Source: Escherichia phage vB_EcoM_RZ. Taken from it: DNA of 64,000 bases. Below are positions 2,951 to 51,950 of this stretch, piece by piece. Positions within the stretch are counted from its first letter, which is position 1, and every line of letters begins with the position of its first letter. A model generated the notes under the pieces. It searched no databases. It had not been told where the DNA came from and saw only the letters and a program-made list of their open reading frames with translations. Both the position numbers and the translations under genes were made by a program. The stretch lies in sequence record MW598459; one strand, given 5' to 3'.

Positions 2951-2992
2951 GACTTTACTTCTGATTTAACTTGGGTTATAATGCGCGTATAA

Positions 2993-3000
2993 TATAAATA
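2993..3000 (+). promoter_or_regulatory. T4-type late promoter TATAAATA upstream of the HNH gene
   Basis: Exact TATAAATA 18 nt upstream of the GTG start at 3018. Confidence 0.5.
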
Positions 3001-3017
3001 CGCGCAAGGATTTACAA

Positions 3018-3623
3018 GTGATTATTTCTAAATTTGTTGAAGTTAAAATACGAAATCATGCAAAATGGTGGAGTGAATACTTAGGTAAAACTCTAACATA
3101 CCATGATGTAATTTCTGTTCCAGTTGAACAAATGCCAGATAATAGTAATAAAAAGATTGAGTGTTCCTGTGATGAATGTGGGGTACATTTTGAGCGCGGC
3201 ATTCAGCTGCTTCGTCGTGTTGATAAACATTTATGTAAAGCATGTTCAAGAAAAGATATTGGACAAAAGAATGTTATTGCGCAAGGTGGTGTACCAAGAC
3301 CATGGCAACGCGGTGAAAAACATCATAGCTGGAAGGGTAATAAGCGCGAATTCTATTTGTATGCTCAACGCGTTCATGCATTGACAAGAGCAAAACATCT
3401 AAAGAATATTTGGTCAACATGGGAAAATGCAGATAAGATAGGAAAATGTGGAGAAGATGGTGCATATCAACTTGACCACAAAGTTTCTATTGCATATGGA
3501 TTTTATAATCACATACCAGAGACTGTTATCGCTTCGCTCAACAATTTAGAAATAGTCACTTGGGAATCTAATAGGTCCAAAGGAAAATCAAATAGTATTG
3601 ACTTATGGGATATATTATCCTGA
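3018..3623 (+). CDS. Free-standing HNH homing endonuclease (GTG start) inserted between genes 18 and 19
   Basis: 201 aa ORF; N-terminal CxxC...CxxC zinc-finger-like motif (ECSCDECG...LCKACS); GEKHHSWKG motif; C-terminal HNH-like motif (QLDHKVSIAYGFYNHIPETVIASLNNLEIVTWESNRSKG); AAGGA ribosome-binding site before the GTG; T4 has no gene at this position. Confidence 0.7.
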   Translation: MIISKFVEVKIRNHAKWWSEYLGKTLTYHDVISVPVEQMPDNSNKKIECSCDECGVHFERGIQLLRRVDKHLCKACSRKDIGQKNVIAQGGVPRPWQRGEKHHSWKGNKREFYLYAQRVHALTRAKHLKNIWSTWENADKIGKCGEDGAYQLDHKVSIAYGFYNHIPETVIASLNNLEIVTWESNRSKGKSNSIDLWDILS

Positions 3624-3647
3624 CAGTAAATGTAATTAAGCAGTAAA

Positions 3648-3700
3648 CCGTAGAACCATTATACAATGCTATAAATAAAAGCATATCATCGGTTCTACGG
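3648..3700. repeat. Inverted repeat with 10 bp arms (CCGTAGAACC / GGTTCTACGG) enclosing a 33 nt loop that carries promoter-like elements
   Basis: Arms at 3648-3657 and 3691-3700 are perfect reverse complements; the loop contains TATAAATA on the plus strand (3670-3677) and TATAAT plus a TGCTTTT box on the minus strand. Confidence 0.55.
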
Positions 3701-3758
3701 ACTCCTCAGAGCTCCTCCAGCGACCTAAATACATTTATTGATGAATCATATTACCTAG

Positions 3759-9700: not shown

Positions 9701-9720
9701 TCCTAGATTAAATTAAATAG

Positions 9721-9751
9721 AAAGGGACCCTTGAGGTCCCTTTCTTGTTTT
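9721..9751. terminator. Bidirectional intrinsic terminator (GGGACC-loop-GGTCCC flanked by A- and T-runs)
   Basis: 6 bp GC stem at 9724-9729 / 9735-9740, followed by TTTCTTGTTTT; A-run upstream allows function on the minus strand too. Confidence 0.7.
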
Positions 9752-10032
9752 CATACCATACCATTTAAATGAACTTCTACCCGGCGCTTGATAAGGTCTC
9801 TGAAGTTAACATTGTTTTCTTGAAGTTTCAACCAGTTACCATTTTTATCTTTAGTGTGAGTAGAATAATTACCATTCCACCAGAAATCAGTGTCATATGC
9901 TAAGTTTTCATATTTTTTAACTAGTTTGTTCAGAGCATTACCATTAACACCATTTGGGTATTTGTTGACCAAGGCAATAACTTCAATTTCCAGATTTTTA
10001 AAGGTGTTCAGAAGGAAAGTTGCTTTGTTCAT
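9751..10032 (-). CDS. Hypothetical early protein (93 aa) embedded between genes 23 and 24
   Basis: Minus-strand ORF with its own early promoter and conserved leader (CTGGAG...ATG); T4 carries segD at this position instead. Confidence 0.5.
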   Translation of the reverse strand: MNKATFLLNTFKNLEIEVIALVNKYPNGVNGNALNKLVKKYENLAYDTDFWWNGNYSTHTKDKNGNWLKLQENNVNFRDLIKRRVEVHLNGMV

Positions 10033-10073
10033 TTTTAAACTCCAGGTTTTGTTTGTTAACTCAGTATGGAATC

Positions 10074-10103
10074 ATTATGTCTTATCTTAATCTGGTTGTA
10101 AAC
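10074..10103 (-). promoter_or_regulatory. Early-type promoter (GTTTACA -35, CATAAT -10) with conserved leader
   Basis: Minus strand reads GTTTACA, then a 17-18 nt spacer, then CATAAT; followed by the ACTGAGTTA(A/C)CA leader and CTGGAG ribosome-binding site shared with cassettes at 31988 and 48868. Confidence 0.55.
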
Positions 10104-10109
10104 AACTTT

Positions 10110-10117
10110 TATAAATA
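10110..10117 (+). promoter_or_regulatory. T4-type late promoter TATAAATA upstream of gene 24
   Basis: Exact TATAAATA about 25 nt upstream of the gp24 ATG. Confidence 0.55.
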
Positions 10118-10142: not shown

Positions 10143-11423
10143 ATGGCTAAAATTAACGAACTCTTAAAAGAGTCGACCACGACCACAAGTTCTTCGATTG
10201 GTCGACCGAATCTAGTAGCTTTAACCAGAGCTACGACTAAACTGATTTACACCGATTTAGTAGCACAACAGCGCACATCCCAGCCACTGGCGGCATTATA
10301 CGGTCTTAAATACCTGACTCAGCAAGATGAATTATCTTTCCAGACTGGTGCAACCTATTCCGGTGCAGTATCAGCAAAAGACCGTGCGACCATTCCGGTT
10401 TTTGTTGCTGGCACAGTTTATGCTAAAGACGATTTGTTCCAGTTTGAAAATGTAGTTTATAAAGCGCTGGTAGCAACTCCATTTGCTGGAGCAACGGGCG
10501 ATGAGTATGACCAGCTTCAAGAAGCGATGGTTAAATTGACCATCCGTATTATGTCCGAAGCTGCAATCACCGAACGTTTTGAAGGACCACAGGAAGTCGA
10601 AATTGCCGAAGCTAAATTTTTGGTTAACAAATGGAATGCTCCGGTTAAATCTCGTAAGCTGAAAAGCACTGTTACAGTGGAACTGGCCCAGGACCTGGAA
10701 GCAAATGGTTTTGACGCTCCAAACTTCCTGGAAGACCTGTTAGCTACCGAAATGGCTGATGAAATTAACAAAGATATCCTGCAATCCCTGGTAACAGTTT
10801 CCAAGCGTTATAAAGTTGCTGGGCTCTGTGATGATGGCCTGATTGACCTGTCTTATACTAACTCTCCGGAAGCTTCACGCAAGTTGTACGAAATCATGTG
10901 TGAGATGGTCTCCCATATTCAGCGGGCAACTTCTTACACCGCAACATACGTTGTTGCTTCTACGCGTGTAGCTGCAGTTTTGGCTGGTTCTGGTTGGTTG
11001 AAGCATCGTCCACAAGATGAGAAATATCTCTCCGATAATGCGTATGGTTTCTTGGATAATGGTCTACCGCTTTATTGCGATACGAACACTCCATTTGATT
11101 ATGTGACTGTTGGTGTTAAAGAAGATTTCGGTGGGAAAGAGATGGTGGGTTCACTGTTTTATGCACCTTATACCGAAGGTCTTGACCTGGAAGACCCTGA
11201 ACATGTTGGTTCGTTCAAAGTTGTCGTTGACCCAGAAAGTTTGCAGCCGTCTATTGCATTAATGGTTCGTTATGCGTTAGCAGCTAACCCTTATACAGTG
11301 ACTGCTGATGATAAACAAGCTCGTATTATTGATGCAACAAATATGGATTTGATGGCAGGACGTTCAGATATGTCTGTACTGCTTGGTGTGAAACTTCCTA
11401 AAGTTCTGACTGAAATAAATTAA
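10143..11423 (+). CDS. 24: Capsid vertex protein gp24
   Basis: 426 aa (T4 gp24 is 427 aa); gp23-like paralogue at the expected position. Confidence 0.93.
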   Translation: MAKINELLKESTTTTSSSIGRPNLVALTRATTKLIYTDLVAQQRTSQPLAALYGLKYLTQQDELSFQTGATYSGAVSAKDRATIPVFVAGTVYAKDDLFQFENVVYKALVATPFAGATGDEYDQLQEAMVKLTIRIMSEAAITERFEGPQEVEIAEAKFLVNKWNAPVKSRKLKSTVTVELAQDLEANGFDAPNFLEDLLATEMADEINKDILQSLVTVSKRYKVAGLCDDGLIDLSYTNSPEASRKLYEIMCEMVSHIQRATSYTATYVVASTRVAAVLAGSGWLKHRPQDEKYLSDNAYGFLDNGLPLYCDTNTPFDYVTVGVKEDFGGKEMVGSLFYAPYTEGLDLEDPEHVGSFKVVVDPESLQPSIALMVRYALAANPYTVTADDKQARIIDATNMDLMAGRSDMSVLLGVKLPKVLTEIN

Positions 11424-11455
11424 AAAGGGACCTTCGGGTCCCTTTATTTTTATTC
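11422..11455. terminator. Bidirectional intrinsic terminator (GGGACC-UUCG-GGUCCC)
   Basis: GC stem with UUCG tetraloop, A-run before and TTTATTTTTATT after; sits between convergent genes 24 and rnlB. Confidence 0.75.
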
Positions 11456-12457
11456 ACTAACTAATGCAATCCAAACATGTCTTAATGTTTCTCTTACATT
11501 TGCGATGAGTTGCTTTTTAACTTCAACAGGATTTTCCGTCAGGGACAATTCAAGACCTTCGCGCCCCGCTTCTTCCAGAATATCTTGGACTGTTAACCCC
11601 ATTACTTTTCCAAAATCCTTCGGTGTTACTTCCCCAATTTTACTGATAACATTGTTGATACGGTTAACAGTCACATAATCAGTGAAATTCCACAGTAAAT
11701 CCATATCATTTTGGCTCAGAACCACTGCAGCCTTAATAGGCTTATCAGACTTTTTCTTTTCACTGAATTTAGAGTTCTTACATTTAATCGCTACACGCTC
11801 GCCGTTAGGTAACCATGCAGGAACATCAGGTTTTAATACAAATCCTTCAGCAGTGAATACTTTACCTTCCACCTTTGCATCAAAATCAGTGGTATTTGCT
11901 GTAGTCAAACCTGCGTTATCCACTGTAAAATTGTAATCAGGGACAACAGAATCCAGGTCATTAGGGAGCTTAATTAATTCTTCAAAACTACCTGTAGCCA
12001 GGCGCGGCGCAACCTTAAACTTATGGATAATACAGAATGCTTCCATCAGGGTGTCAGTCAGGACGGATTCAAAACCATCTTCTTTAGTAACGCGGATATC
12101 AAATACATAAAAATCTTTATCACCGTAATCCACATTCTTCTGGATACCTGCCCCGGCAAACTCACCATAAATCTGGTATGCCTGGTAATTAATATCCTGC
12201 AAAAGTTTCTGCACAGATTTAATAGAATCTGCATAGTTCTTTAATACAATTTCATAACCATAGAAATCTTCTGCAGGCAGGATAGGTCCAGTGCGTTTCG
12301 CACATGTTACATTGTCTTGTTCAATGATTAATGAAAAGTTGGTACCATGAATCTTCTCGCGAGCTACCCATTCACCGCTGGTGAAGCCTTGCAGGCGAAT
12401 CTTTTCAATGAACTTGTTGTTATAGTGATTTTCAAGGCTGTTGTATTTCTTAAACAT
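11450..12457 (-). CDS. rnlB: RNA ligase 2 (RnlB)
   Basis: 335 aa; near-identical to remembered T4 Rnl2 (MFKKY.SLENHYN.KFIEK...[25 protein letters not shown]...); contains the ligase KxHG lysine motif. Confidence 0.92.
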
Positions 12458-12555
12458 AATCTCTCACTTTTGATGTTATAAATATCATTATAAATTAGAC
12501 CCACTATACTTTCTTTCTCTGAAAGGAATTAATAGTCGCAAAGGGGTCTAGAACC

Positions 12556-12584
12556 ATTATACCACAATTTTATTTGAAGCAAAA
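12556..12584 (-). promoter_or_regulatory. Middle promoter with MotA box (TGCTTCA, 13 nt spacer, TATAAT) upstream of rnlB
   Basis: Minus strand reads ttTGCTTCAaataaaattgtggTATAATgg. Confidence 0.55.
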
Positions 12585-12587
12585 AGG

Positions 12588-12851
12588 TCAGAATTTTACA
12601 TACAGCATTGGCTTGGCTTCTTGCCAATCATAATTCCAGGTAAATGATGTAAATTTTTCTGCTCGCAGAAATTCAGATATCTTTGCGCGGTTTCCTTCTT
12701 CATACTCTTTTTCAGAAACTGCCATATTAACAGCATCTTTGCCATTTTCAGCGGCGGCAATAGCCACTTTGCGGAATATAGCAATAAAGTCATTTGCAAC
12801 TTTATCTTGTGACTCTTTGGCCATTTGACGTAGTTCTTCTGCGAATGTCAT
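12588..12851 (-). CDS. Hypothetical protein (87 aa), T4 24.2/24.3 position
   Basis: ORF in the gap between rnlB and hoc; ATGA-type overlap with the upstream gene. Confidence 0.5.
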   Translation of the reverse strand: MTFAEELRQMAKESQDKVANDFIAIFRKVAIAAAENGKDAVNMAVSEKEYEEGNRAKISEFLRAEKFTSFTWNYDWQEAKPMLYVKF

Positions 12852-13051
12852 TTCTTCACCTTTTTGTTATTCAAACGTTTACGATAAACAATCTTTTCTT
12901 TCGCTTTAAATTTAGCTTTAGCTTGTTCTACATCAACCCAGGCCTTTGCCATCTCTTTAGCAGTCCCGCCTAATACCTTGGCAATTTCAATAAATGTCAT
13001 ACCAGATTCATGCAGAAAATGTACTTTAACCTTATCCATAATGATTCTCAT
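12848..13051 (-). CDS. Hypothetical small protein (67 aa) with a possible helix-turn-helix
   Basis: Segment SGMTFIEIAKVLGGTAKEMAKAW resembles a helix-turn-helix; basic C-terminus. Confidence 0.45.
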   Translation of the reverse strand: MRIIMDKVKVHFLHESGMTFIEIAKVLGGTAKEMAKAWVDVEQAKAKFKAKEKIVYRKRLNNKKVKK

Positions 13052-17504: not shown

Positions 17505-17532
17505 AATGTATCCAATGTAAGGGTCTAGAACC

Positions 17533-17560
17533 ATTATACAGCCATAAAATTAAAGCATTA
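17533..17560 (-). promoter_or_regulatory. Middle promoter with MotA box (TGCTTTA, 12 nt spacer, TATAAT) upstream of uvsY
   Basis: Minus strand reads aaTGCTTTAattttatggctgTATAATgg; T4 uvsY is likewise transcribed from a middle promoter. Confidence 0.6.
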
Positions 17561-24848: not shown

Positions 24849-25132
24849 CGGAATGAAATGAAACCTGCTGCAGTCATTACAGCTTCTTTCTTAGCAAAGA
24901 CTGTAATTGCAATTGGTGCTTCAGATTCAAGTTGTCCAGTTACTACACCATTAAAAATATTTTCTGTTTGTTCAGAATTTACAAAGTTTTCAACAGGGCG
25001 AAGGTCAAACTTCTTATCTTCACCAAATACACGGCGCAATTCATTACCCACCGCGCTGTCAAACTCTTCTGAAGCCGGGATAACATTCTCAACTACCAGT
25101 TCCTGACCATTAAAGCGAAAAGATGATTTCAT
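24842..25132 (-). CDS. Hypothetical protein (96 aa), alt.-1 position
   Basis: Start taken at the ATG at 25132 preceded by GAGGAAAACAAA; the longer ORF-track start at 25165 falls inside the promoter -10. Confidence 0.5.
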   Translation of the reverse strand: MKSSFRFNGQELVVENVIPASEEFDSAVGNELRRVFGEDKKFDLRPVENFVNSEQTENIFNGVVTGQLESEAPIAITVFAKKEAVMTAAGFISFRK

Positions 25133-25163
25133 TTTGTTTTCCTCATGTGCAATTGATATGAAC

Positions 25164-25193
25164 ATTGTATCGCACTTCCTTGTGCTTGTAAAC
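25164..25193 (-). promoter_or_regulatory. Early-type promoter (GTTTACA, 17 nt spacer, TACAAT) with conserved CATGAGGAAAACAAA-ATG leader
   Basis: Minus strand reads GTTTACAagcacaaggaagtgcgaTACAAT; the same leader precedes the gene at 35663. Confidence 0.55.
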
Positions 25194-31140: not shown

Positions 31141-31506
31141 TTAGATATCAAATTCATTAAGAACTACATCAAAGATTGCTTCCAGGTGTTCAGGTTTTGC
31201 TTTGTTGCTCAGGATATGACGAATCCAAGTTTTAACCAGAAGCTTGCGATTAACACCATTCCAGCAAGGATGAGTCCCTAAATCACGCTCACGGAAATCA
31301 TCATCTAATGCGATTTTGAATACCGAACCTTCCATCGTGATTGAAAGAGTGATACCATTTTCAAATCGCATATAAACGTAGTTAGGAGTCATATACTGTT
31401 CAATTTCACACACTGAACCGTTTTGATGTTTCCACAAGCAAATAACTTCAGAAGAACCTGGGATGCAGTTAGAAACATATTTGCGTTCAAAGTTGATGTA
31501 GTTCAT
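31141..31506 (-). CDS. Hypothetical protein (121 aa)
   Basis: ORF preceded by the conserved CTGGAGAATAAA-ATG leader. Confidence 0.5.
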   Translation of the reverse strand: MNYINFERKYVSNCIPGSSEVICLWKHQNGSVCEIEQYMTPNYVYMRFENGITLSITMEGSVFKIALDDDFRERDLGTHPCWNGVNRKLLVKTWIRHILSNKAKPEHLEAIFDVVLNEFDI

Positions 31507-31577
31507 TTTATTCTCCAGTTGTTTTCATTTGTTGGTACAGGTCTATAATATCATAACCTGTACCAAAGTAAACTGTT

Positions 31578-31946
31578 TTATGCGACTTTAATCCAATTAT
31601 CTAAATTTAATTCACCCTTAGCTTTCATTTTTTCAATCAGAAGGTCTGCAGTGGTGCGACCATTTTGATACCATGTAACATCTTCAGAATAACCAGTTTC
31701 TTCATCTTCATAGGTCTTACAACGAATCTTACCAATAATCAAAGTTTTCAGTTCGTAGGTATCACCAGTAAAAAAGTTTGTTACCATAATTTTCCAAGAG
31801 AAGTCATCAGAAGGACCTTCTGGAGTCATGCAACCTACAAATTCAAACTGCTCTTTATACAAGTGCCATTGCATCTCTTTAGTTTCGATTGCTTTGTAGC
31901 CGTCGTGGTCTTTACCTTTGATGTATGAGTTAAGATTGATTTTCAT
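31578..31946 (-). CDS. Hypothetical protein (122 aa)
   Basis: ORF preceded by the shared promoter-leader cassette. Confidence 0.5.
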   Translation of the reverse strand: MKINLNSYIKGKDHDGYKAIETKEMQWHLYKEQFEFVGCMTPEGPSDDFSWKIMVTNFFTGDTYELKTLIIGKIRCKTYEDEETGYSEDVTWYQNGRTTADLLIEKMKAKGELNLDNWIKVA

Positions 31947-31987
31947 TTTATGCTCCAGTGTTTTATTGTGTAACTCAGTATGAAATC

Positions 31988-32017
31988 ATTATGCACTGGA
32001 CCAACCCTGTTGTAAAC
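31988..32017 (-). promoter_or_regulatory. Early-type promoter (GTTTACA, 17 nt spacer, CATAAT) with conserved leader
   Basis: Near-identical to the cassettes at 10074-10103 and 48868-48897, including the CATACTGAGTTACACAA leader. Confidence 0.55.
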
Positions 32018-32029
32018 CCCTTTATGGAA

Positions 32030-32057
32030 AATAAAAAAGGGACTCCGAAGAGTCCCT
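32030..32057 (-). terminator. Intrinsic terminator (GGGACTC-CGAA-GAGTCCC plus T-run)
   Basis: 7 bp GC stem with tetraloop followed on the minus strand by TTTTTTATTTT; directly after the 53 aa gene. Confidence 0.7.
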
Positions 32058-35121: not shown

Positions 35122-35663
35122 CAGATTGTCTCCTGTTTTACTTGTTTAACGATAGAAGCTTTTGTGATATCACCTTTGATAATATAACAATCTTCTGCAG
35201 TACCGCGGTTTAACAGGCGCTCTGCTTCGTCTTCCGCATATTCTTTTGACACATGACGAGAGTTAATCTCAATCTTGCCATTTTTAACCACAAGCAATTT
35301 CCAAACTGATGCAAGTTTTACTGGCACAGGTTCAACTTCTGGCTTAACACCAACTTCTGCCTGGATGAAATAATCAAATTCATCAGACAATGGACCAGCA
35401 GAAACAAACATTGCCCCATGATGCCTGTTCTGTGTGCCAGATATTTTTGGCAAATCCACAAAATCATTTTCATCAATCAAACGAATCTCACAAACTTTTT
35501 TACCGCCGCTGATGTCATCGGATAAAATCTTAACTTCAAACGGAGTCATACCGATGTATCCAGCAATTTGGTAATTGGCTGCCCAGCCTCCGGCAATAAA
35601 CTGTTTTTTGGCATTTTCAGATACAAATTTGTAAAACTTACCTTCTTCAAAGAAATCGCTCAT
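35121..35663 (-). CDS. Hypothetical protein (180 aa), member of a three-gene paralogue family
   Basis: N-terminus EGKFYKFVSENAKKQFIAGGW resembles the genes at 49160-49528 and 49878-50240; GAGGA ribosome-binding site. Confidence 0.55.
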   Translation of the reverse strand: MSDFFEEGKFYKFVSENAKKQFIAGGWAANYQIAGYIGMTPFEVKILSDDISGGKKVCEIRLIDENDFVDLPKISGTQNRHHGAMFVSAGPLSDEFDYFIQAEVGVKPEVEPVPVKLASVWKLLVVKNGKIEINSRHVSKEYAEDEAERLLNRGTAEDCYIIKGDITKASIVKQVKQETI

Positions 35664-35692
35664 TTTGTTTTCCTCATGTGTTGATGAAATTC

Positions 35693-35721
35693 ATTATACA
35701 CCATCCATGGTGAAAGTAAAC
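35693..35721 (-). promoter_or_regulatory. Early-type promoter (GTTTAC, 17 nt spacer, TATAAT)
   Basis: Minus strand reads GTTTACtttcaccatggatggtgTATAAT, followed by the CATGAGGAAAACAAA-ATG leader. Confidence 0.6.
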
Positions 35722-37890: not shown

Positions 37891-37894
<4 letters not shown>

Positions 37895-38373
37895 ACACCA
37901 AGCTCCTTATAAAGTTCTTCGCGGCAAGTTTTAAGGATTTTACCAGTTTCATAAGCTGCACTTTCAGAAACATCACCAAGTGCAGCGGCAGATTGCATTT
38001 GACCATGGCGTTTAGCTGCATATTCAAAACTTTTTACTAGCTCACGAATACGTTCTTTTTCATTGTACTCTTCAATGAATTCAGGGTATTCCCAAACTGG
38101 GCGCATCATACGATACCACTGTTGGATGGTAATATAATTACTTCCATCCAGATTAATAATTTGCGAAGGCTTAATAGCGCCCGGAGCATAAAAAGTTACC
38201 TGTCTTACTACATCAATACCGTCCACCATAGCCCAAGCAAAATCGAAAGTTGCCTTCTTTTCAATTGGTGTACTTGCACAGGACCCTAATTTTAAGAGCT
38301 TTTGTAATGCAGGGGATTTAACACCTGAAATGTATTCAGGCTTAGCCACAAAACTGTTATCACGTAATGTCAT
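37891..38373 (-). CDS. Hypothetical protein (160 aa), pseT.1 position
   Basis: Start taken at the ATG at 38373 with strong GAGGA ribosome-binding site; the longer ORF-track version begins with TTG inside the promoter region. Confidence 0.5.
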
Positions 38374-38409
38374 AATATTTTCCTCAAATATTTTATAATC
38401 CGTGGGAGC

Positions 38410-38439
38410 ATTATACTCTGCTCCCATAAGTTTGTACAC
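38410..38439 (-). promoter_or_regulatory. Early-type promoter (GTGTACA, 17 nt spacer, TATAAT) with the -10 in a hairpin loop
   Basis: Minus strand reads GTGTACAaacttatgggagcagagTATAATgctccc; GGGAGCA / TGCTCCC inverted repeat flanks the -10. Confidence 0.5.
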
Positions 38440-39677: not shown

Positions 39678-39924
39678 AATATTTTCCTCATTAGTAGCGG
39701 TTATAACCCCGGGGACCAAAAGAGTTGGCACCCAGGCGCTCATCTTTCTTTTTGGCTCTTGCTCTAAACCCGGAATCACCTGTTTGAGCTTTCAGTTCTT
39801 TTAACAATTTGGCCTTTAGGTCAGTAATGAAACCAATCCGGCGGTCTCCCTTATAGACATAGATTCCATCATTTCTGTCACCATATGCCTTTGTAACTCT
39901 GTCATTTGTAATTAAGTTTAACAT
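39569..39924. repeat. Direct repeat (~105 bp, period 250 bp) duplicating the alc 5' coding region
   Basis: Copy 1 at 39569-39677 and copy 2 at 39819-39924 share blocks such as GGTCAGT.AT.A.ACCAAT and CCTTATAGACATA.ATTCC.TCAT...GTCACCATAT; the encoded peptides share ...YGDR.DGIYVYKG...IG..TDL.AKL.K.LKA. Confidence 0.6.
39691..39924 (-). CDS. Hypothetical protein (77 aa) paralogous to the Alc N-terminus
   Basis: Start at the ATG at 39924 downstream of an early promoter; MLNLITNDRVTKAYGDRNDGIYVYKGDRRIGFITDLKAKLLKELKAQ aligns with Alc residues 1-50. Confidence 0.5.
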   Translation of the reverse strand: MLNLITNDRVTKAYGDRNDGIYVYKGDRRIGFITDLKAKLLKELKAQTGDSGFRARAKKKDERLGANSFGPRGYNRY

Positions 39925-39955
39925 GTTTTGGTCCTCATCAGTAGTTGATGGAACC

Positions 39956-39985
39956 ATTATGTATAGAAAGAAGGGGCTTGTACAC
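39956..39985 (-). promoter_or_regulatory. Early-type promoter (GTGTACA, 17 nt spacer, CATAAT) with the -35 in a hairpin loop
   Basis: Minus strand reads aaggGGTGTACAAGcccctt...CATAAT; AAGGGG / CCCCTT stem at 39971-39990; conserved GGTTCCATCAACTACTGATGAGGA leader follows. Confidence 0.5.
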
Positions 39986-39994
39986 CCCTTTTTA

Positions 39995-41566: not shown

Positions 41567-42743
41567 ATAGATATTTACGGAAACCAGCAAGAACGTTCTC
41601 ATCGACGTCATTGTCAATCTGGGCTACCAGGTAAGCAGACAACTCAACTTCTTGTGGTGCTGATTGCACATTATCAGAGTTAAGATATTCGCGAATCCAT
41701 GGAATCGGGTGCTTAGTAGATTCTAACACGATTTCACACGGGAGACCGCATTGCTTCATACGAGAAACCGTCAGGTAATCGATGAACCGGTTAAGAATCT
41801 CGACGCTCAGCCCAGGGAGTCCACCATCTTTAAACAGATGCACGGCCCATTCTTTTTCCTGGCGATTAACTTCCATGAAAATGGCTGCGGCTTCTGCTTC
41901 ACATTCGTGAGCGATTTTAACCCATTCGTCACCGTCAACACCAGTCTGCAGCTGACGAAGAATATATTGGGTCCCCTTAAGGTGGAGCTGTTCATCACGG
42001 GCGATGAACTTCATTATCTTCGCATTGCCTTCCATGATTTCCATGTTCTTATGGAAGTTGAAAGTGCAAGCAAAAGATACATAAAAACGAATAGCTTCCA
42101 GGGCATTAATGACATGCAGACAGAGATAAAGAGACTTCATCAATGCTCGTTTGGCGATAGCTTCTTGTTTGATAGCTCGTTCCAAACGTTCGTCCGCTTC
42201 GGGAGTTTCTTTGGCCAGTTCAACAAAAGCAATCTGGTTTTGCCATTGACGAGTTTTATTCAGAACATCATCATAGTAATGGCCAATGGATTCTGCACGC
42301 TTCATGATTGCATCATCTAACAGGATTTCGTCGAATACCTTCGCCGGGTCCGTATAGAGATTTCGCATGATGTGCGTATAAGAACGAGAGTGAATTGTCT
42401 CGCTGAATGTCCAGGTCTGAATCCATGTATCAAGACTTGGGTCAGAAACTAATGCGGCTAATGCTGCAGCTGGAGCACGACCCTGGATACTATCCAGAAG
42501 TGATTGGTATTTCAGGTTGTTGGTAAAAATATTTTGTTGATGTTCAGGAAGCTTATTAAATTGAGCTCCGTCCATCATCAGGTTTACTTCCTCTGGACGC
42601 CAGAAGAATGATAATTGCTTTTCTGTTAATTCTTCGAAAACTTTATGACGCTGGATATCATAACGGGCAATCCCCAATCCTGAACCGAAGAACATTGGCT
42701 CGGCTAAAACATCCACCGGAGTGGTATTAAAAACTGTACTCAT
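41565..42743 (-). CDS. nrdB: Ribonucleotide reductase beta (small) subunit NrdB, intron-less
   Basis: 392 aa continuous ORF (T4 NrdB is 388 aa after splicing); di-iron class Ia features; T4 nrdB carries a group I intron, absent here. Confidence 0.93.
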   Translation of the reverse strand: MSTVFNTTPVDVLAEPMFFGSGLGIARYDIQRHKVFEELTEKQLSFFWRPEEVNLMMDGAQFNKLPEHQQNIFTNNLKYQSLLDSIQGRAPAAALAALVSDPSLDTWIQTWTFSETIHSRSYTHIMRNLYTDPAKVFDEILLDDAIMKRAESIGHYYDDVLNKTRQWQNQIAFVELAKETPEADERLERAIKQEAIAKRALMKSLYLCLHVINALEAIRFYVSFACTFNFHKNMEIMEGNAKIMKFIARDEQLHLKGTQYILRQLQTGVDGDEWVKIAHECEAEAAAIFMEVNRQEKEWAVHLFKDGGLPGLSVEILNRFIDYLTVSRMKQCGLPCEIVLESTKHPIPWIREYLNSDNVQSAPQEVELSAYLVAQIDNDVDENVLAGFRKYL

Positions 42744-43468
42744 TTATTAACCTTTATCCTTCCTCTGACCCATCCATCGGGGATAATTTCAGAGGATTCA
42801 ATTAATTTATTTGTAAACCCGTCATTAATACAGATTTTACCACGGGCACCTTTATATTGTCGTGGAGTTATTTTATCAAATGTGGGTTGAAGCGAATATG
42901 ACCATCTAAATCCATAGGCATATTGAAATTTTCCACTCGCACAATACTTGATGTTTGATGCGTTTCCATTTACGGACCGAGCTGCTTCTTGCAATGACCT
43001 AAATTTTTCAACAAATTCACCATCAAGAGTAAATTGATAAATTTCTGTAGATGGAACAGCTAACTTATTCTTTTCACTTACAATTTGCTTAGATTCTTCA
43101 CTGTGATGCTTACCCAACATACCACGGGGATGTGGGTTATTTTTCCAGTGTTCCTTAAAGAATTCAGAATTTGCTTTGGCAAATAGCTTTCGATGGAAAC
43201 TATACAAGTTATTATTAATACGATTTCCAGCTTTATCCGTTGCCATTAAAGTTAGGGCCGAGACCAATCCAAAATGACCGGGATTTATTTTGCATAAAAG
43301 CAAATGAGCAATAAAATGTTCTCGAGCTGTTAACTCGACAAGGTTTGTTCTTTCATCAGTACCGCCCATACATCTTGGGATAATATGATGAATCTCTTTA
43401 TATTCGGTTAAAGGTTCCCGGGTTTTACCCCGGGATATTAAATTATTATAAATGTTTTGATAATTCAT
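42740..43468 (-). CDS. mobE: Free-standing HNH homing endonuclease between nrdA and nrdB (MobE-like)
   Basis: 242 aa; HNH motif EIHHIIPRCMGGTDERTNLVELTAREHFIAH; same intergenic position as T4 mobE; TAATG overlap with nrdA and ATGA overlap with nrdB. Confidence 0.8.
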   Translation of the reverse strand: MNYQNIYNNLISRGKTREPLTEYKEIHHIIPRCMGGTDERTNLVELTAREHFIAHLLLCKINPGHFGLVSALTLMATDKAGNRINNNLYSFHRKLFAKANSEFFKEHWKNNPHPRGMLGKHHSEESKQIVSEKNKLAVPSTEIYQFTLDGEFVEKFRSLQEAARSVNGNASNIKYCASGKFQYAYGFRWSYSLQPTFDKITPRQYKGARGKICINDGFTNKLIESSEIIPDGWVRGRIKVNK

Positions 43469-48396: not shown

Positions 48397-48587
48397 TATA
48401 TTTTCCTCAAATATTTTTTAACCATATAATATTGAAATTCAAACATTTTGGAATCAATTACCCAAATCTGACGTTTAGGACACTCATTCAAACGCACCGC
48501 GGAACATCCAGAGGAAAGGAATGAATACTGTTCCTTTTCTGTTTCAGAAAGACATGTTCTTAAAAAGCGGAAAAATAAATCATGCAT
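48396..48587 (-). CDS. Hypothetical small protein (63 aa)
   Basis: Start taken at the ATG at 48587, overlapping the stop of the upstream 82 aa gene by 8 nt; the 139 aa ORF-track version would run out of frame across that gene. Confidence 0.35.
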
Positions 48588-48828
48588 TTTTATTTGCCTT
48601 AACGACTTTCCAGTCAGCTTTAAATTGGTCAACATCAGAGTGGTGAATCCAGAAACCAGATGAGCTACCATCTTCATAAAGAGGACAACCATCACACTCA
48701 TCTTTCCAACCCATTGCACACAAAGTTTCTTCAGCTTTTTCCAGAGCTTCTGGATTGTTACCCTGGATTGTGAAATACCATTTACCTTTAACTTCTGAAT
48801 CTTTGATGCTCTCACGTTGTAATTTCAT
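48580..48828 (-). CDS. Hypothetical protein (82 aa)
   Basis: Preceded by the shared early promoter-leader cassette with CTGGAGAATAAA-ATG; Cys-containing (CAMGW...ECDGC). Confidence 0.5.
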   Translation of the reverse strand: MKLQRESIKDSEVKGKWYFTIQGNNPEALEKAEETLCAMGWKDECDGCPLYEDGSSSGFWIHHSDVDQFKADWKVVKANKNA

Positions 48829-48867
48829 TTTATTCTCCAGTTTTGTTGTGTAACTCAGTATGGGACC

Positions 48868-48897
48868 ATTATGTCATAGCCCCATTTGGTTGTACAC
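48868..48897 (-). promoter_or_regulatory. Early-type promoter (GTGTACA, 17 nt spacer, CATAAT) with conserved leader
   Basis: Near-identical to the cassettes at 10074 and 31988 through the ribosome-binding site. Confidence 0.55.
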
Positions 48898-48903
48898 TAC
48901 TTT

Positions 48904-49170
48904 TTAAATTTTATCAAGCCATTTTCCAAGTTTAGTCATTTCCTTGGTGGCCTTTTCCATACTTCTGAACTTAATTAATAAAGGATGAACATCCATACCC
49001 ATCACCAGATTGGTTGCAAGACTGTGCTCACCAACAAGCCATAATGAGTATGTTTGAACATCCAGACCATAATTTCTGTCTTTATGAACTCGTACACCCA
49101 TTACTTCAAACTGTTCGCTTGCTTTTTCTACTGCATCCAGGAAATCATCTTTAGTCATGTTAGACCCCAA
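48904..49170 (-). CDS. Hypothetical protein (88 aa)
   Basis: ORF in the frd-32 interval. Confidence 0.5.
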   Translation of the reverse strand: MGSNMTKDDFLDAVEKASEQFEVMGVRVHKDRNYGLDVQTYSLWLVGEHSLATNLVMGMDVHPLLIKFRSMEKATKEMTKLGKWLDKI

Positions 49171-49528
49171 AAGTTGCTTTAATCAGTGCAATGACTTCTG
49201 CTGCATTTTTGTGATTGACTTGCACATGAATGGTTTGGGTATCAACATCAGGAGCATCACCATCAACTTCCAGGAAGTGACGGAATTCCCATTCACCAAG
49301 TTCAAAGTACTCATCAGAATCACCCATACTATTCAGGATGGTGCCATCTTTCATTTCAACTTTTTCAACAAAATAATCGCCATCAATAAAGCACATGTCC
49401 AGGACTTTGAAGGAACTACCATGTTGTTCCATCAACTTAATCATACGCGAATTGTCATCAGGACTACCAGCGATGAATTGTTTTTTGGCAGCAGGGTCTA
49501 ATACGTAAAATTTACCAGTTTCCATCAT
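49160..49528 (-). CDS. Hypothetical protein (122 aa), paralogue family member
   Basis: Shares GKFY...KKQFIAG and D(S/D)(D/E)YFEL(G/S)E(W/E)EF blocks with the genes at 49878-50240 and 35121-35663. Confidence 0.55.
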   Translation of the reverse strand: MMETGKFYVLDPAAKKQFIAGSPDDNSRMIKLMEQHGSSFKVLDMCFIDGDYFVEKVEMKDGTILNSMGDSDEYFELGEWEFRHFLEVDGDAPDVDTQTIHVQVNHKNAAEVIALIKATFGV

Positions 49529-49587
49529 TTTAATTTCCTCATATTCAATTGAGGGAACATATTATCATGTTCCAGTTGGTTTGTATA

Positions 49588-49815
49588 CTAAGCTTGAATC
49601 AAGCCCATATAAAATTCAGCATCTTCCGGGTGCATCCCTTCGCAATATTCATTTTGCATAAAGCGGGTAAGGTCTTTGAGAGGACCTTGAACTTCAATTT
49701 GAATACTAAAGAATTGGGTATCTTTAATGTAAGTCATACACAAAGAAGGATACCGATTACGAATAACTTCGTAAGTGTATTCAAAATCAACGATATCAAT
49801 ATTAACCTTGGCCAT
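49588..49815 (-). CDS. Hypothetical protein (75 aa)
   Basis: ORF preceded by a GAGGAAAATAAA-ATG leader. Confidence 0.5.
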
Positions 49816-49877
49816 TTTATTTTCCTCATGTAGTTGATGGGTCTATAATAACATAATCATAGACCCGTTGTAAACTG

Positions 49878-50240
49878 CTATTTGAAAGCTTTTTGTAGAA
49901 GTTCAATGATTTGGTCGACGTTATTAGCATCTACAACACAATTAATAGAAACCGCCCCCGAAGGTGTTTTTGTATAATTGGAGTATTCACGGAAGCAATA
50001 AAACTCTTCTTCGCTAAGTTCAAAATAATCATCACCCATGCCATCATCATTATAGATTGCACCATTAGCACAAATGATTTCGGTTACATAATCATAGCCG
50101 TCTGCACTTGATATTGATTTAACTTCAAACCAACCGCCATTTTCTTGGATGATGTCGACCATACTAGCATTCGATGAACTAATATCAATGAAAGATTTAA
50201 TACGATGTGGATTGAACTCATATTTTTTGCCGATTTCCAT
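49878..50240 (-). CDS. Hypothetical protein (120 aa), paralogue family member
   Basis: Paralogue of the gene at 49160-49528 (GKKYEFNP...; DDGMGDDYFELSEEEF). Confidence 0.55.
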   Translation of the reverse strand: MEIGKKYEFNPHRIKSFIDISSSNASMVDIIQENGGWFEVKSISSADGYDYVTEIICANGAIYNDDGMGDDYFELSEEEFYCFREYSNYTKTPSGAVSINCVVDANNVDQIIELLQKAFK

Positions 50241-50278
50241 TTTTATTTCCTCAGTTGTTATCAGTAGTTGATGGAATC

Positions 50279-50308
50279 ATTATGCCTTAGCTCAAAGGAC
50301 TTGTACAC
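50279..50308 (-). promoter_or_regulatory. Early-type promoter (GTGTACA, 17 nt spacer, CATAAT)
   Basis: Minus strand reads GTGTACAagtcctttgagctaaggCATAAT, followed by the CCATCAACTACTGATAACAACTGAGGA leader. Confidence 0.5.
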
Positions 50309-50320
50309 TACTTTTTGAAA

Positions 50321-50347
50321 ATAAAAAGGGGACCCGAAGGTCCCCTT
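50321..50347 (-). terminator. Intrinsic terminator (GGGGACC-CGAA-GGTCCCC plus T-run) after gene 32
   Basis: 7 bp GC stem with tetraloop followed on the minus strand by TTTTTATTTTC; the gene 32 stop is at 50351. Confidence 0.75.
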
Positions 50348-50350
50348 ATA

Positions 50351-51262
50351 TTAAAGGCCAGCCAGCAGGTCATCAAGACCATCATCGGAAGGCTCTGGAG
50401 TGCTTGGGGCAGTCGCAGTGCGTTCAGACTTAGCAGGTTTGCTGGAAGTGAAGTCTTCCATATCTTTATCGAAATCGTCCAGGTCAGCACCCAGTTTATC
50501 GGCTTGTGCAGCAGCTTTAGAAGCAGCGCCACCGAGAGCAGCTGTGCCCATTACTTTAGAGAATTTCTTCTGATTCTCTTCAAGAGATTTAAATACCAGC
50601 AATTCATTCAGGTCAGACATGTCGTCCCAAAGTTTTTTCTGGAATGCTTCATCATTGATACCGGCGATTTCAGACTGGTTCATGAATTTGGAATCATCGT
50701 AGTTTTTATAACCGGAAACCAGTTTAGATTTCAGTACGAAGTTTGCACCATCAAACGGACAAGTTACATCAACAGCTTCTTCGCCCATGTCAACATCAAC
50801 TTCAACCATCTGGTTGATTTTGTCCATGATTTTCTTACCAAAGCGATATTTGAATACTTGGCCTTCGTTAGACGGAACAGCAGGGTCTTTAATGACCAGG
50901 ATGTTAGCCCAGTAAGAAGTATTACGCTTCAGTTTACGATATTCAGATTCGTTTGTATTGTACAGGTCATTCTTATTCATGTACGCACACACAGGGCAGT
51001 TTTCATAATCGCCGTGAGTAGAAGTACAGTTTTCAATATACCATTGACCAGCATTTTTAAAGCCGTGGTTAACGAGCTTGATGAATGGAGATGGATTTTC
51101 TTCATTCTTAGAAGGCAGGAAACGAATAACCGCAGAGCCGACGCCATCAGTATCTTTCAGTTTCCATTCTTTTTTATCGTCAGAAGAGAAACCAGCGCCA
51201 CCTTTCAGAGCGTTAAGGGAAGCAGCCAGGTCAGCAGGGTTTTTACGTTTAAACATAGACAT
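50351..51262 (-). CDS. 32: Single-stranded DNA-binding protein gp32
   Basis: 303 aa (T4 gp32 is 301 aa); strong match (VIRFLPSKN...HGFK..G.WYIE.C.STHGDY..PV.C.Y..KNDLYNT...[34 protein letters not shown]); acidic C-terminus. Confidence 0.95.
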
Positions 51263-51311: not shown

Positions 51312-51950
51312 TTAATTATACTTCAAAGTGATTGAAGCGATAAACTTTTGAAATTCAGAATCAAGATGGGGATTCCATCCTAATTTGAATTTATTTATAA
51401 TGGAAATACCGGTCGTGTGTGTACACGGTAAACCAGTTTCTCTTGCCATAATAACTGGACCAAGTCTGGAAGTTCTATGCGGTCCTATATACCAGTCATA
51501 ATATATTCCAGCATTTAACCAAACTAAATGAGCACCTTTAGCTATTGTATTAGGATGTTCCCAAGGCAATAAACCTTTAAGGTGAGAATTTAATTTCATA
51601 TTTATTTTATGTGATTCTGATTTTGGTTTACCTTTTAATGAAGACTTAAAGGTTCCACGAGCACTCGCCTTATTGAAAAACAATGGCGATTTAACCACAT
51701 TATAGTGTTGATGGTAAAACTCTTCTTCTGACAACACATCGTCACACACATGCAGAATTTTAACGGTTGGTTTTTCAGACAATGCCTCAATAAAACGAGA
51801 TTGTTTGCATGAAGACCAGTATTCTTTATTATGTGAATCAATTATAACACCATTTTCAAAAGCACAATTATGCTTTGACCCAATGTAAAAATAAGGAGGC
51901 GTTTTATTTTTCAGACGAGTTTCAAATGTAAACCAATATACAACATTCAA
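51312..51950 (-). CDS. GIY-YIG homing endonuclease-like protein (Seg-like), TTG start
   Basis: 212 aa; N-terminal VVYWFTFETRLKNKTPPYFYIGSKHN resembles a GIY-(10-11 aa)-YIG motif; no in-frame ATG upstream of the motif, so a TTG start overlapping the gp59 stop (TTGA) is required; T4 has segG at this position. Confidence 0.6.
   Translation of the reverse strand: MNVVYWFTFETRLKNKTPPYFYIGSKHNCAFENGVIIDSHNKEYWSSCKQSRFIEALSEKPTVKILHVCDDVLSEEEFYHQHYNVVKSPLFFNKASARGTFKSSLKGKPKSESHKINMKLNSHLKGLLPWEHPNTIAKGAHLVWLNAGIYYDWYIGPHRTSRLGPVIMARETGLPCTHTTGISIINKFKLGWNPHLDSEFQKFIASITLKYN

Follow-up and report, generated by a model that had tools for sequence, protein, structure and literature searches.

We analyzed a 64,000-nucleotide stretch of the genome of Escherichia phage vB_EcoM_RZ (sequence record MW598459; this whole stretch is referred to as the window) that contains a short promoter-leader cassette repeated in front of several minus-strand genes. 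Megablast with three sub-regions placed the window within the SP18/VR20/VR26/DK-13 group of T4-type coliphages, genus Gaprivervirus, at 92-99% identity, with a closest relative that changes from segment to segment. By the annotation of SP18, the window covers gp18, the capsid genes, the baseplate hub, alt, gene 30 to rIII, cd, pseT, nrd and frd to gene 32, followed by the tail-fibre genes. Copy A of the cassette precedes frd.1 (open reading frame (ORF) 48580-48828, 82 amino acids) in the frd-32 region and copy C precedes gp30.8 (ORF 31578-31946, 122 amino acids) in the 30-rIII region, while copy B, the exception, precedes a gene (ORF 9751-10032, 93 amino acids) that lies between gp23 and gp24. 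The products are Frd.1 (DUF5417), gp30.8 (PF06019) and a phrog_6003 protein. The original prediction, made from the letters of the window, held that one cassette had been reused before three genes with dissimilar products; blastp gave only self matches among the three proteins, which belong to separate Pfam/PHROG families.

Anatomy and identity of the three cassettes

All three copies were found in place on the minus strand, and each contains the predicted succession of a GT(G/T)TACA -35 element, 17 nucleotides, CATAAT, a leader and CTGGAG...ATG. The whole of copy A spans 48826..48908 and consists of an A-tract (48908-48898), the -35 element GTGTACA (48897-48891), the 17-nucleotide spacer, the -10 element CATAAT (48873-48868), the discriminator GGTCCC, a predicted start at A 48861, the conserved initial transcribed region ATACTGAGTTAC (48861-48850), an A/C-rich spacer and the ATG (48828-48826). 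Copy C (31944..32017) has GTTTACA at 32017-32011, CATAAT at 31993-31988, a predicted start at A 31981, ATACTGAGTTAC at 31981-31970, GGAGCATAAAA at 31956-31946 and ATG at 31946-31944. The corresponding parts of copy B (10030..10103) are GTTTACA (10103-10097), CATAAT (10079-10074), a predicted start at A 10067, ATACTGAGTTAA (10067-10056), GGAGTTTAAAA (10043-10033) and ATG (10032-10030). In each copy TGTACA or TTTACA, 17 nucleotides and CATAAT make up a sigma70-type promoter with AAAAGT/AAAGG tracts upstream, and the 3' end is CTGGAG, 7-8 nucleotides and ATG.

A repeat search grouped the three copies as one 65-nucleotide family with 71-80% ungapped identity. Pairwise, the -35 block is 63-74% identical, the spacer 35-65% and the -10 hexamer 100%, and the discriminator with the first ~15 transcribed bases (CCATACTGAGTTA(A/C); ~21 nucleotides with the discriminator) is 76-86% identical among the copies. 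The modules had been called near-identical over ~75 bp; the likeness does reach beyond the promoter, but that wording overstates it, since most of the spacer is not shared. We also considered that the resemblance might be due to chance or might amount to no more than the -35 and -10 hexamers that any promoter has. A/T-rich intergenic DNA of phages contains many hexamer matches, and generic promoter-like sites are no commoner in these regions than in shuffled sequence. However, the 22-nucleotide leader CATACTGAGTTACACAACAAAA occurs three times in the window at ≤3 mismatches with none expected (100 shuffles), and from the discriminator to +20 the copies are only 37% identical to the window's remaining early promoters. 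The copies are thus alike far outside the hexamers, and chance likeness is refuted to the point of being negligible as an explanation.

Genome-wide family and classes of early promoter

A 48-mer extending from the -10 element of copy A to the ATG is present at 10-12 places in every Gaprivervirus record. The whole genome of SP18 was used for genome-wide counts, in which early-strand promoters were listed by -35 and -10 criteria only. A class I leader, CCATACTGAGTTAC..., was found in 13 copies in SP18, usually with the 3' end CTGGAGAATAAAATG; a class II leader, CCATCAACTACTGA..., in about nine; and class III, with the hairpin TGGGGTCA...TGACCCCA around the -10 element, in four. An additional start type, TATAGACC, was found at gp30.7 of the window. 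Among the genes behind the SP18 class I copies, 5 of 13 have no "similar to" note, compared with 28 of 286 genome-wide (P = 0.005). The spacers of the class I copies differ while the sequence from -10 to +12 stays invariant. Two promoters (SP18 168210 and 61943) have a common spacer and different leaders, and two pairs (130499/67522 and 164365/68568) each have a common leader and different spacers. This mosaic of spacers and leaders requires exchange inside the cassette. Judged by their sequences, copies A, B and C are not a recent duplication.

Outside the genus, the class I leader was present in Morganella phage MP1 (Gualtarvirus) as GCATAATGATCCCATACTGAGTTAACAAACAAACGGAG and at frd.1 of Dhakavirus LHE83. 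In T4 the class II region, ATCAACTACTGATAC, follows TACTAT at three promoters, and -10-spanning hairpins also occur. The class I start region ATACTGAGTTAC was absent from the T4 stretch examined, and no T4 record was among the listed matches to the 48-mer; T4 has only the class II region ATCAACTACTGA in common with this phage. Grouped by the first 12-14 bases of the transcript, the predicted early promoters form a few discrete classes, and T4 shares one of them.

The sequence criteria given for T4-type early promoters, a GTTTAC-type -35 element, an A-rich region at -40 to -44 and a C-rich region at -3 to -1 (Nolan et al. 2006, PMC1524935), are present in the cassettes. T4 early promoters also contain "additional regions of consensus" beyond the sigma70 elements, thought to optimise the interaction with polymerase (Hinton 2010, PMC2988021), and extra consensus is likewise seen here. 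The -10 elements differ, being CATAAT in the cassettes and TA(C/T)TAT preceded by GTG in promoters of the T4 type.

An IMG/VR search with the 15-mer CATACTGAGTTACAC returned 100 stretches, and the promoter context was found only in VR20, VR25, VR26 and close relatives. Most of the other matches have the context ...GCAATCTCATACTGAGTTACACCAGT..., come from related environmental viral contigs and show no promoter features; we regard them as unrelated to the cassette.

The leader and a putative RegB/S1 target

For RegB, acting with ribosomal protein S1, to cut the early mRNAs of T4 efficiently, a single-stranded 11-mer is required; its consensus is GGAGAAUAAAA (GGAGRAYARAA), and it is usually the Shine-Dalgarno (SD) sequence (Durand et al. 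2006, PMC1702504). The SD sequence of copy A, GGAGAATAAAA (48828..48838, minus strand), ends on the A of the ATG and is an exact match to this consensus. In SP18, which encodes regB, the consensus is matched 12 times against an expectation of 0.3-0.5; each of these sites lies on the early strand and adjoins a start codon. Relatives have the exact consensus at 30.8. As in T4, the 11-nucleotide sequence doubles as the SD sequence in copy A and at the 12 SP18 starts, but it covers only the 3' 11-13 nucleotides of the cassette, and copies B and C deviate from it.

Folding z-scores were calculated against dinucleotide shuffles. The leaders of the window fold less stably than shuffled sequences (z +1.6, +0.06 and +1.4), and the class I leaders of SP18 have a mean z of +1.0, with 12 of 13 above zero. 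This is what a single-stranded RegB target and an efficient ribosome-binding site require. Strong conservation between start site and SD sequence in front of unrelated genes might also be expected if the leader were a dedicated cis-regulatory RNA, either a repressor operator or a structured element, that defined a regulon of three genes. We consider this improbable: the poor folding of the leaders indicates that there is no conserved structure, Rfam gave no family at the gathering threshold anywhere in the window, each genome has 10-13 members rather than three, and the stretch that follows the initial transcribed region, up to the SD sequence, varies in length and sequence among copies and orthologues.

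Stem-loops

The -10 element of copy A is surrounded by an inverted repeat, AUGGGGCUAU / AUGGUCCCAU (48860..48885, minus strand). Folded as the read-through strand, this hairpin has a free energy of -18.4 kcal/mol and a z-score of -3.54, and only 1 of 200 shuffles was as stable. Two hairpins claimed in the original prediction (38404-38425 and 39971-39990) were recovered, the first around the -10 element of the cassette at 38439 (-14.9 kcal/mol, z -2.8) and the second around the -35 element of the cassette at 39985 (-11.8 kcal/mol, z -2.0). Together with the cassettes at 49875 and 49588, these have hairpins around the -10 or -35 element comparable to that of copy A, and none of the five is followed by a T-run. 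The promoter of copy C itself has no hairpin by folding (z +2.45); directly 5' of it is a terminator hairpin, AGGGACTCTTCGGAGTCCCT with a T-run (32028..32057, minus strand; hairpin 32057-32038), which would be the stem-loop part of this cassette. Of the 33 early promoters predicted in SP18, 15 reach z-scores under -2, usually owing to a hairpin that encloses the -10 element, and in most of these the spacer is complementary to the discriminator and the first transcribed bases. The same pairing is made by an inverted repeat in many class I copies, leaving the -10 element in the hairpin loop.

Rearrangement junctions among sister phages

The window was aligned to SP18, EAWsc9 and VR26, and junction sequences were read directly. 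A link between the cassettes and gene shuffling had been proposed, and rearrangement junctions relative to these three phages were indeed found inside cassettes. The frd.1 gene of VR26, 96% identical to that of the window, has a different cassette upstream, AATGTTTACAACAGGCTATGGTAATGATACTATAGCCTTACCAACTTGAGGAGAATAAAATG. Homology between the two phages at copy A breaks at 48838, in the SD sequence, and resumes at 48890, at the -35 element. The -35 half of copy A is followed in VR26 by the spacer, -10 element and leader of the frd.3 cassette, and frd.3 is relocated there. In the window, frd.3 lies between frd.2a and frd.2b and is flanked by the cassettes 49813..49875 and 49526..49588. SP18 is without frd.3, and its frd.3 cassette joins frd.2b directly, with the crossover inside GAGGAAA(A/T)TAAAATG. 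The VR26 promoter downstream of gene 32 has the spacer of the window promoter at 50308, but it carries a class I leader and would drive frd.2b, whereas the window promoter carries a class II leader and would drive frd.2a. Cassettes neighbouring copy A border both the frd.3 and the frd.2a indel.

Two further differences from SP18 lie at cassette edges. SP18 gene 30.6A, with its own terminator, is inserted at the position of window 32033-32035, the 5' edge of the 30.8 cassette; this point is between the 30.9 terminator and the 30.8 promoter and between two similar terminator hairpins. A 161-amino-acid gene present in the window and not in SP18 begins exactly at the ATG of the cassette at 38439. 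In all, 6 of 13 rearrangement events among the four genomes touch a cassette, although cassettes make up 3.8% of bases. The crossovers in the chimeric cassettes of sister phages fall within one of three blocks (-35, -10 to start, or SD to ATG), and the class of cassette that appears to drive frd.1 is not the same in every isolate.

Of the remaining events, some involve homing-endonuclease genes and the others show no obvious vehicle. An HNH/NUMOD1 homing endonuclease gene between nrdB and nrdA (42740-43468, minus strand) is missing from at least one close relative, and a segG-like gene after gene 32 (51312-51950, minus strand) is present in SP18 and absent from EAWsc9 and VR26. A 201-amino-acid ORF between gp18 and gp19 (3018-3623, plus strand), which has no Pfam match, is also missing from at least one relative.

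Relation to promoter early stem-loop cassettes

Promoter early stem-loop (PeSL) elements have been described in RB49/phi1 (Arbiol et al. 2010, PMC2839356) and in T4/PST and KVP40/nt-1 (Comeau et al. 2014, PMC4122927). Five subclasses were distinguished by the position of the stem-loop, from upstream of the -35 element to downstream of the -10 element, the commonest having it between -35 and -10 or over the -10 element (PMC2839356). Published PeSLs are repeated mainly in hyperplastic regions, where small accessory genes lie. Crossovers were mapped between the -10 element and the ATG (PMC2839356, PMC4122927), and for the RB49/phi1 PeSLs, promoter and terminator activity and mini-circle formation were demonstrated with reporter fusions and with inverse PCR of infected cells (PMC2839356). 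The cassettes described here resemble PeSLs in combining a sigma70-type early promoter with an A/T-rich tract, an SD sequence and an ATG, and in many cases with a stem-loop, in their many copies per genome, and in adjoining indels, replacements and relocated ORFs with crossovers between -10 and ATG; copy A would belong to the subclass in which the stem-loop overlaps the -10 element. They differ in their promoter elements, which are GTKTACA/CATAAT here, near-perfect TTGACA/TATAAT with G-run/C-run stems in RB49, and TTTACW/TAYWAT in T4/PST. They also have an invariant initial transcribed region of 12-14 nucleotides, a feature that was not singled out in those papers. Copy B, which has no stem-loop and lies in a core structural module, is comparable to the "degraded/half" PeSLs of PMC4122927. 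An analogous process is the shuffling of the T4 internal-protein locus (Repoila et al. 1994, in the part of that work recounted in PMC4122927), in which small accessory genes are likewise exchanged at conserved flanking regulatory sequences, the locus and the genes being different.

We conclude that the three elements are very probably members of a family of early promoter-leader cassettes of the T4 type that recurs across the genome, and that the family is of the PeSL kind, as had been proposed. Promoter, SD sequence and ATG, repetition and the junctions fit, and stem-loops accompany copy A and, upstream of the promoter, copy C; copy B lacks both a stem-loop and a junction. The blocks of the cassette are an A-rich tract, the -35 element GT(G/T)TACA, a free 17-nucleotide spacer, the -10 element CATAAT, a C-rich discriminator, a putative start at the A of CCAT, a near-invariant initial transcribed region of 12-14 nucleotides, AUACUGAGUUA(C/A), a second spacer that is rich in A and C, unstructured and not fixed in length, and GGAG in an A-rich context 7-8 nucleotides before the AUG. 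Host sigma70 RNA polymerase would fire these promoters immediately on infection, and the short, open leader would allow efficient translation. In copy A, cutting by RegB and S1 in the SD sequence, which matches the GGAGAAUAAAA target exactly, would end translation within minutes, while copies B and C would be poorer targets. Shut-off of the promoters by AsiA was also considered and was dropped, as AsiA contributes little to early shut-off (PMC2988021). Since the blocks recur before many genes, they provide patches of homology, and recombination at these patches could exchange, delete or relocate the small genes between them.

Several observations weigh against this interpretation. Promoter activity, timing and start sites are predictions from the sequence. 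By folding, copy B has no stem-loop (z +0.18), and it adjoins no gene-content difference among the four genomes compared. The gp30.8 gene is present in 1034 phage records and is widely conserved rather than variable, and copy B is stable in every genome compared. The association of junctions with cassettes is strong against a uniform null (P < 5e-5) and only borderline against a gene-boundary null (P ~0.05), and the events in the frd-32 region are mutually non-independent. As the enrichment is borderline at gene boundaries, we rely on the chimeric junction sequences and not on the statistic. With respect to RegB, the SD sequences of copy C (GGAGCAUAAAA) and copy B (GGAGUUUAAAA) are off the consensus at positions 5-6, copy C having a C at position 5, which is rare according to PMC1702504, and copy B a U at 5 and 6. 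The regB gene lies outside the window, and the two exact consensus matches in the window, taken by themselves, are not significant (8 of 100 shuffles); the excess is convincing only at the scale of the whole SP18 genome.

The cassette is real, but it is not a new kind of element. What is added is the proposed link to RegB and S1, the start-region classes and the explicit chimeric junctions. These offer a clean sequence-level case of small accessory gene movement in T4-type phages, extend the PeSL picture to Gaprivervirus and connect the cassette, through its 3' end, with the putative RegB/S1 signal for shut-off. The discrete start-region classes also provide a handle for probing the "extra consensus" of T4-type early promoters.

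Conservation of the initial transcribed region

The initial transcribed region resembles the -35 element of the phage itself (GTTACA versus GTKTACA), and CATACT resembles a -10 element. A generic scan found a second sigma70-like site in each leader (48854-48827, 31974-31945 and 10059-10031, minus strand), with GTTACA or TTAACA, 16-18 nucleotides and TAAAAT or AAAAAT overlapping the ATG. It could be supposed from this that the region is a second polymerase-recognition element, serving as a promoter-proximal sigma70 pause site or as a tandem promoter. We find this highly improbable, since a transcript from the second site would begin downstream of the start codon, inside the gene, and so could not serve to express it, the -10-like hexamer is nothing more than the A-rich spacer between SD sequence and ATG, and sigma70-like sites are no commoner here than in shuffled sequence.

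The start region and leader might also have no function of their own and be kept alike by recombination or gene conversion, hitch-hiking with the promoter, so that concerted evolution alone would account for them. The mosaic combinations of spacer and leader and the chimeric cassettes show that exchange between copies occurs, and the orthologous promoters of gp30.8 and of the gp23/gp24 gene have -10/start sequences specific to the genus (GTTACTATAGACYTGTACC in the Mosigvirus and Klebsiella phages, TACTATAGACC in AnYang, CATAATGATTCCATACTGAG here), as concerted evolution expects. Conversion tracts would, however, have to include -10 to +12 each time and yet spare the adjacent spacer. The first eight nucleotides, ATACTGAG, are invariant in all orthologues and paralogues seen, including those of the Morganella phage, which belongs to another genus of Straboviridae, and of a Dhakavirus, and the class II region is common to T4 and this phage despite unrelated spacers. 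The extra consensus regions already noted in T4 early promoters (PMC2988021) likewise argue against pure hitch-hiking. A comparison of substitution rates among the window, SP18, VR20, VR26, EAWsc9, MN01 and LHE83 had too few differences to have the power to separate selection from gene conversion. Pure hitch-hiking does not readily account for a free spacer beside the conserved region or for conservation in MP1 and LHE83, and we consider it an unlikely explanation.

A role of the initial transcribed region, which is as invariant as the -10 element, in polymerase interaction or escape is plausible. We tentatively suggest, as a speculation that carries some weight, that AUACUGAGUUA(C/A) is a discrete functional signal and not passive homology, perhaps a determinant of escape or of a sigma70 pause, or a 5'-end tag recognised by a factor of phage or host, which would mark one co-regulated immediate-early class in Gaprivervirus, at least one Dhakavirus (LHE83) and MP1, distinct from the ATCAACTACTGA class shared with T4.

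Ancestry of individual promoters

Copy B had been said to place an early gene inside the late capsid operon. However, Dhakavirus AnYang and every Gaprivervirus genome checked carry this antisense gene, likewise with an early promoter in that position, and the arrangement is ancestral. A recent insertion of the gene into the capsid operon was rejected, as AnYang has the gene with a promoter at the same position. The promoter of the gp23/gp24 gene in AnYang is of the other -10/start type, TACTATAGACC. The late-promoter box of gp24, TATAAATA (10110..10117, plus strand), is 6 bp from the -35 element of copy B (10097-10103, minus strand), so that putative late and early promoters stand back to back, and the same layout is found in AnYang and MN01. 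A bidirectional terminator hairpin (9719-9745) belongs to the antisense unit of copy B and separates gp23 from it. Two tandem gp24 genes are present in EAWsc9, VR26 and MN01 (11647-12930, 10450-11733 and 2424-3707 of the respective retrieved stretches), while the window (10143-11423) and SP18 have one. SP18 also has two alt genes compared with one in the window.

The gp30.8 promoter of copy C is orthologous to that of T4. A terminator, a GTTTAC-type promoter, a leader and GGAGAATAAAATG are arranged in the same way at gp30.8 in T4, Mosigvirus, Moonvirus and a Klebsiella phage; in Tegunavirus TG1 the terminator-promoter layout is kept and the 3' end is GGATAATAAAACAATG. The -10/start sequence at gp30.8 differs by lineage: Mosigvirus and the Klebsiella phage have GTTACTATAGACYTGTACC, T4 has GATAGTATTATCTTACAC and the window has CATAATGATTTCATACTGAG. 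Other genera share a -10/start sequence of their own, GTTACTATAGACYTGTACCACC or TACTATAGACC, as seen upstream of gp30.8 in Klebsiella phage Roth21 and in Mosigvirus moskry and SHSML-52-1, and in AnYang. That genera have their own -10/start sequences suggests lineage-specific concerted evolution of early promoters across Tevenvirinae.

Other cassettes and features of the window

The remaining cassettes are also on the minus strand. A second leader family, ...CATGAGGAAAA(C/T)AAAATG, had been predicted at four places; it was found at 25130, 35661 and 49813, and the leader at 50238 is a member with a looser match (CTGAGGAAATAAAAATG). The class II cassettes are located before the alt.-3 homologue (25130..25193), at 35661..35721 with the leader ATCAACACATGAGGAAAACAAAATG, and at 39922..39985, where the -35 element is in the loop of the hairpin GGGG-TGTACAA-CCCC. 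The cassette before frd.2a (50238..50353) comprises the gene 32 terminator, -35 and -10 elements of the type seen in copies A, B and C, and the class II leader ATCAACTACTGAT. In the cassette before frd.3 (49813..49875) an 11-bp stem, GGGTCTATGAT / GTTATAGACCC, which includes G-T pairs, encloses or overlaps the -10 element TATTAT (z -3.41), and in that before frd.2b (49526..49588) the -10 element GATAAT is atop a hairpin, GGAACATG / TATGTTCC, of eight pairs with a 4-nucleotide loop. The class III cassette (38371..38439) has the hairpin TGGGAGCA / TGCTCCCA around the -10 element TATAAT, and the 161-amino-acid ORF behind it (37891-38376, minus strand) has no Pfam match. The cassette before gp30.7 (31504..31573) has the -10/start type TATTATAGACCTGTACC, a 9-bp hairpin and the 3' end GGAGAATAAAATG.

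Between the frd.1 stop codon and the next gene there is a 183-nucleotide, seemingly non-coding insert (48410-48597) that SP18, EAWsc9 and VR26 lack. At its 3' end it has a repeat of the leader TTTGAGGAAAATATAATG, which is also present at 38371-38408, and the insert may be the remnant of a lost cassette or gene. Upstream of gp19, an inverted repeat, CCGTAGAACC...GGTTCTACGG (3648-3702, plus strand), has the late box TATAAATA (3670-3677) in its loop. The opposite strand, TGCTTTTATTTATAGCATTGTATAAT, looks like a MotA box with a -10 element, that is, a putative middle promoter directed towards gp18. Similar 33-nucleotide repeats are located at 12549-12581 and 17526-17558, the first of these being the rnlB middle promoter.

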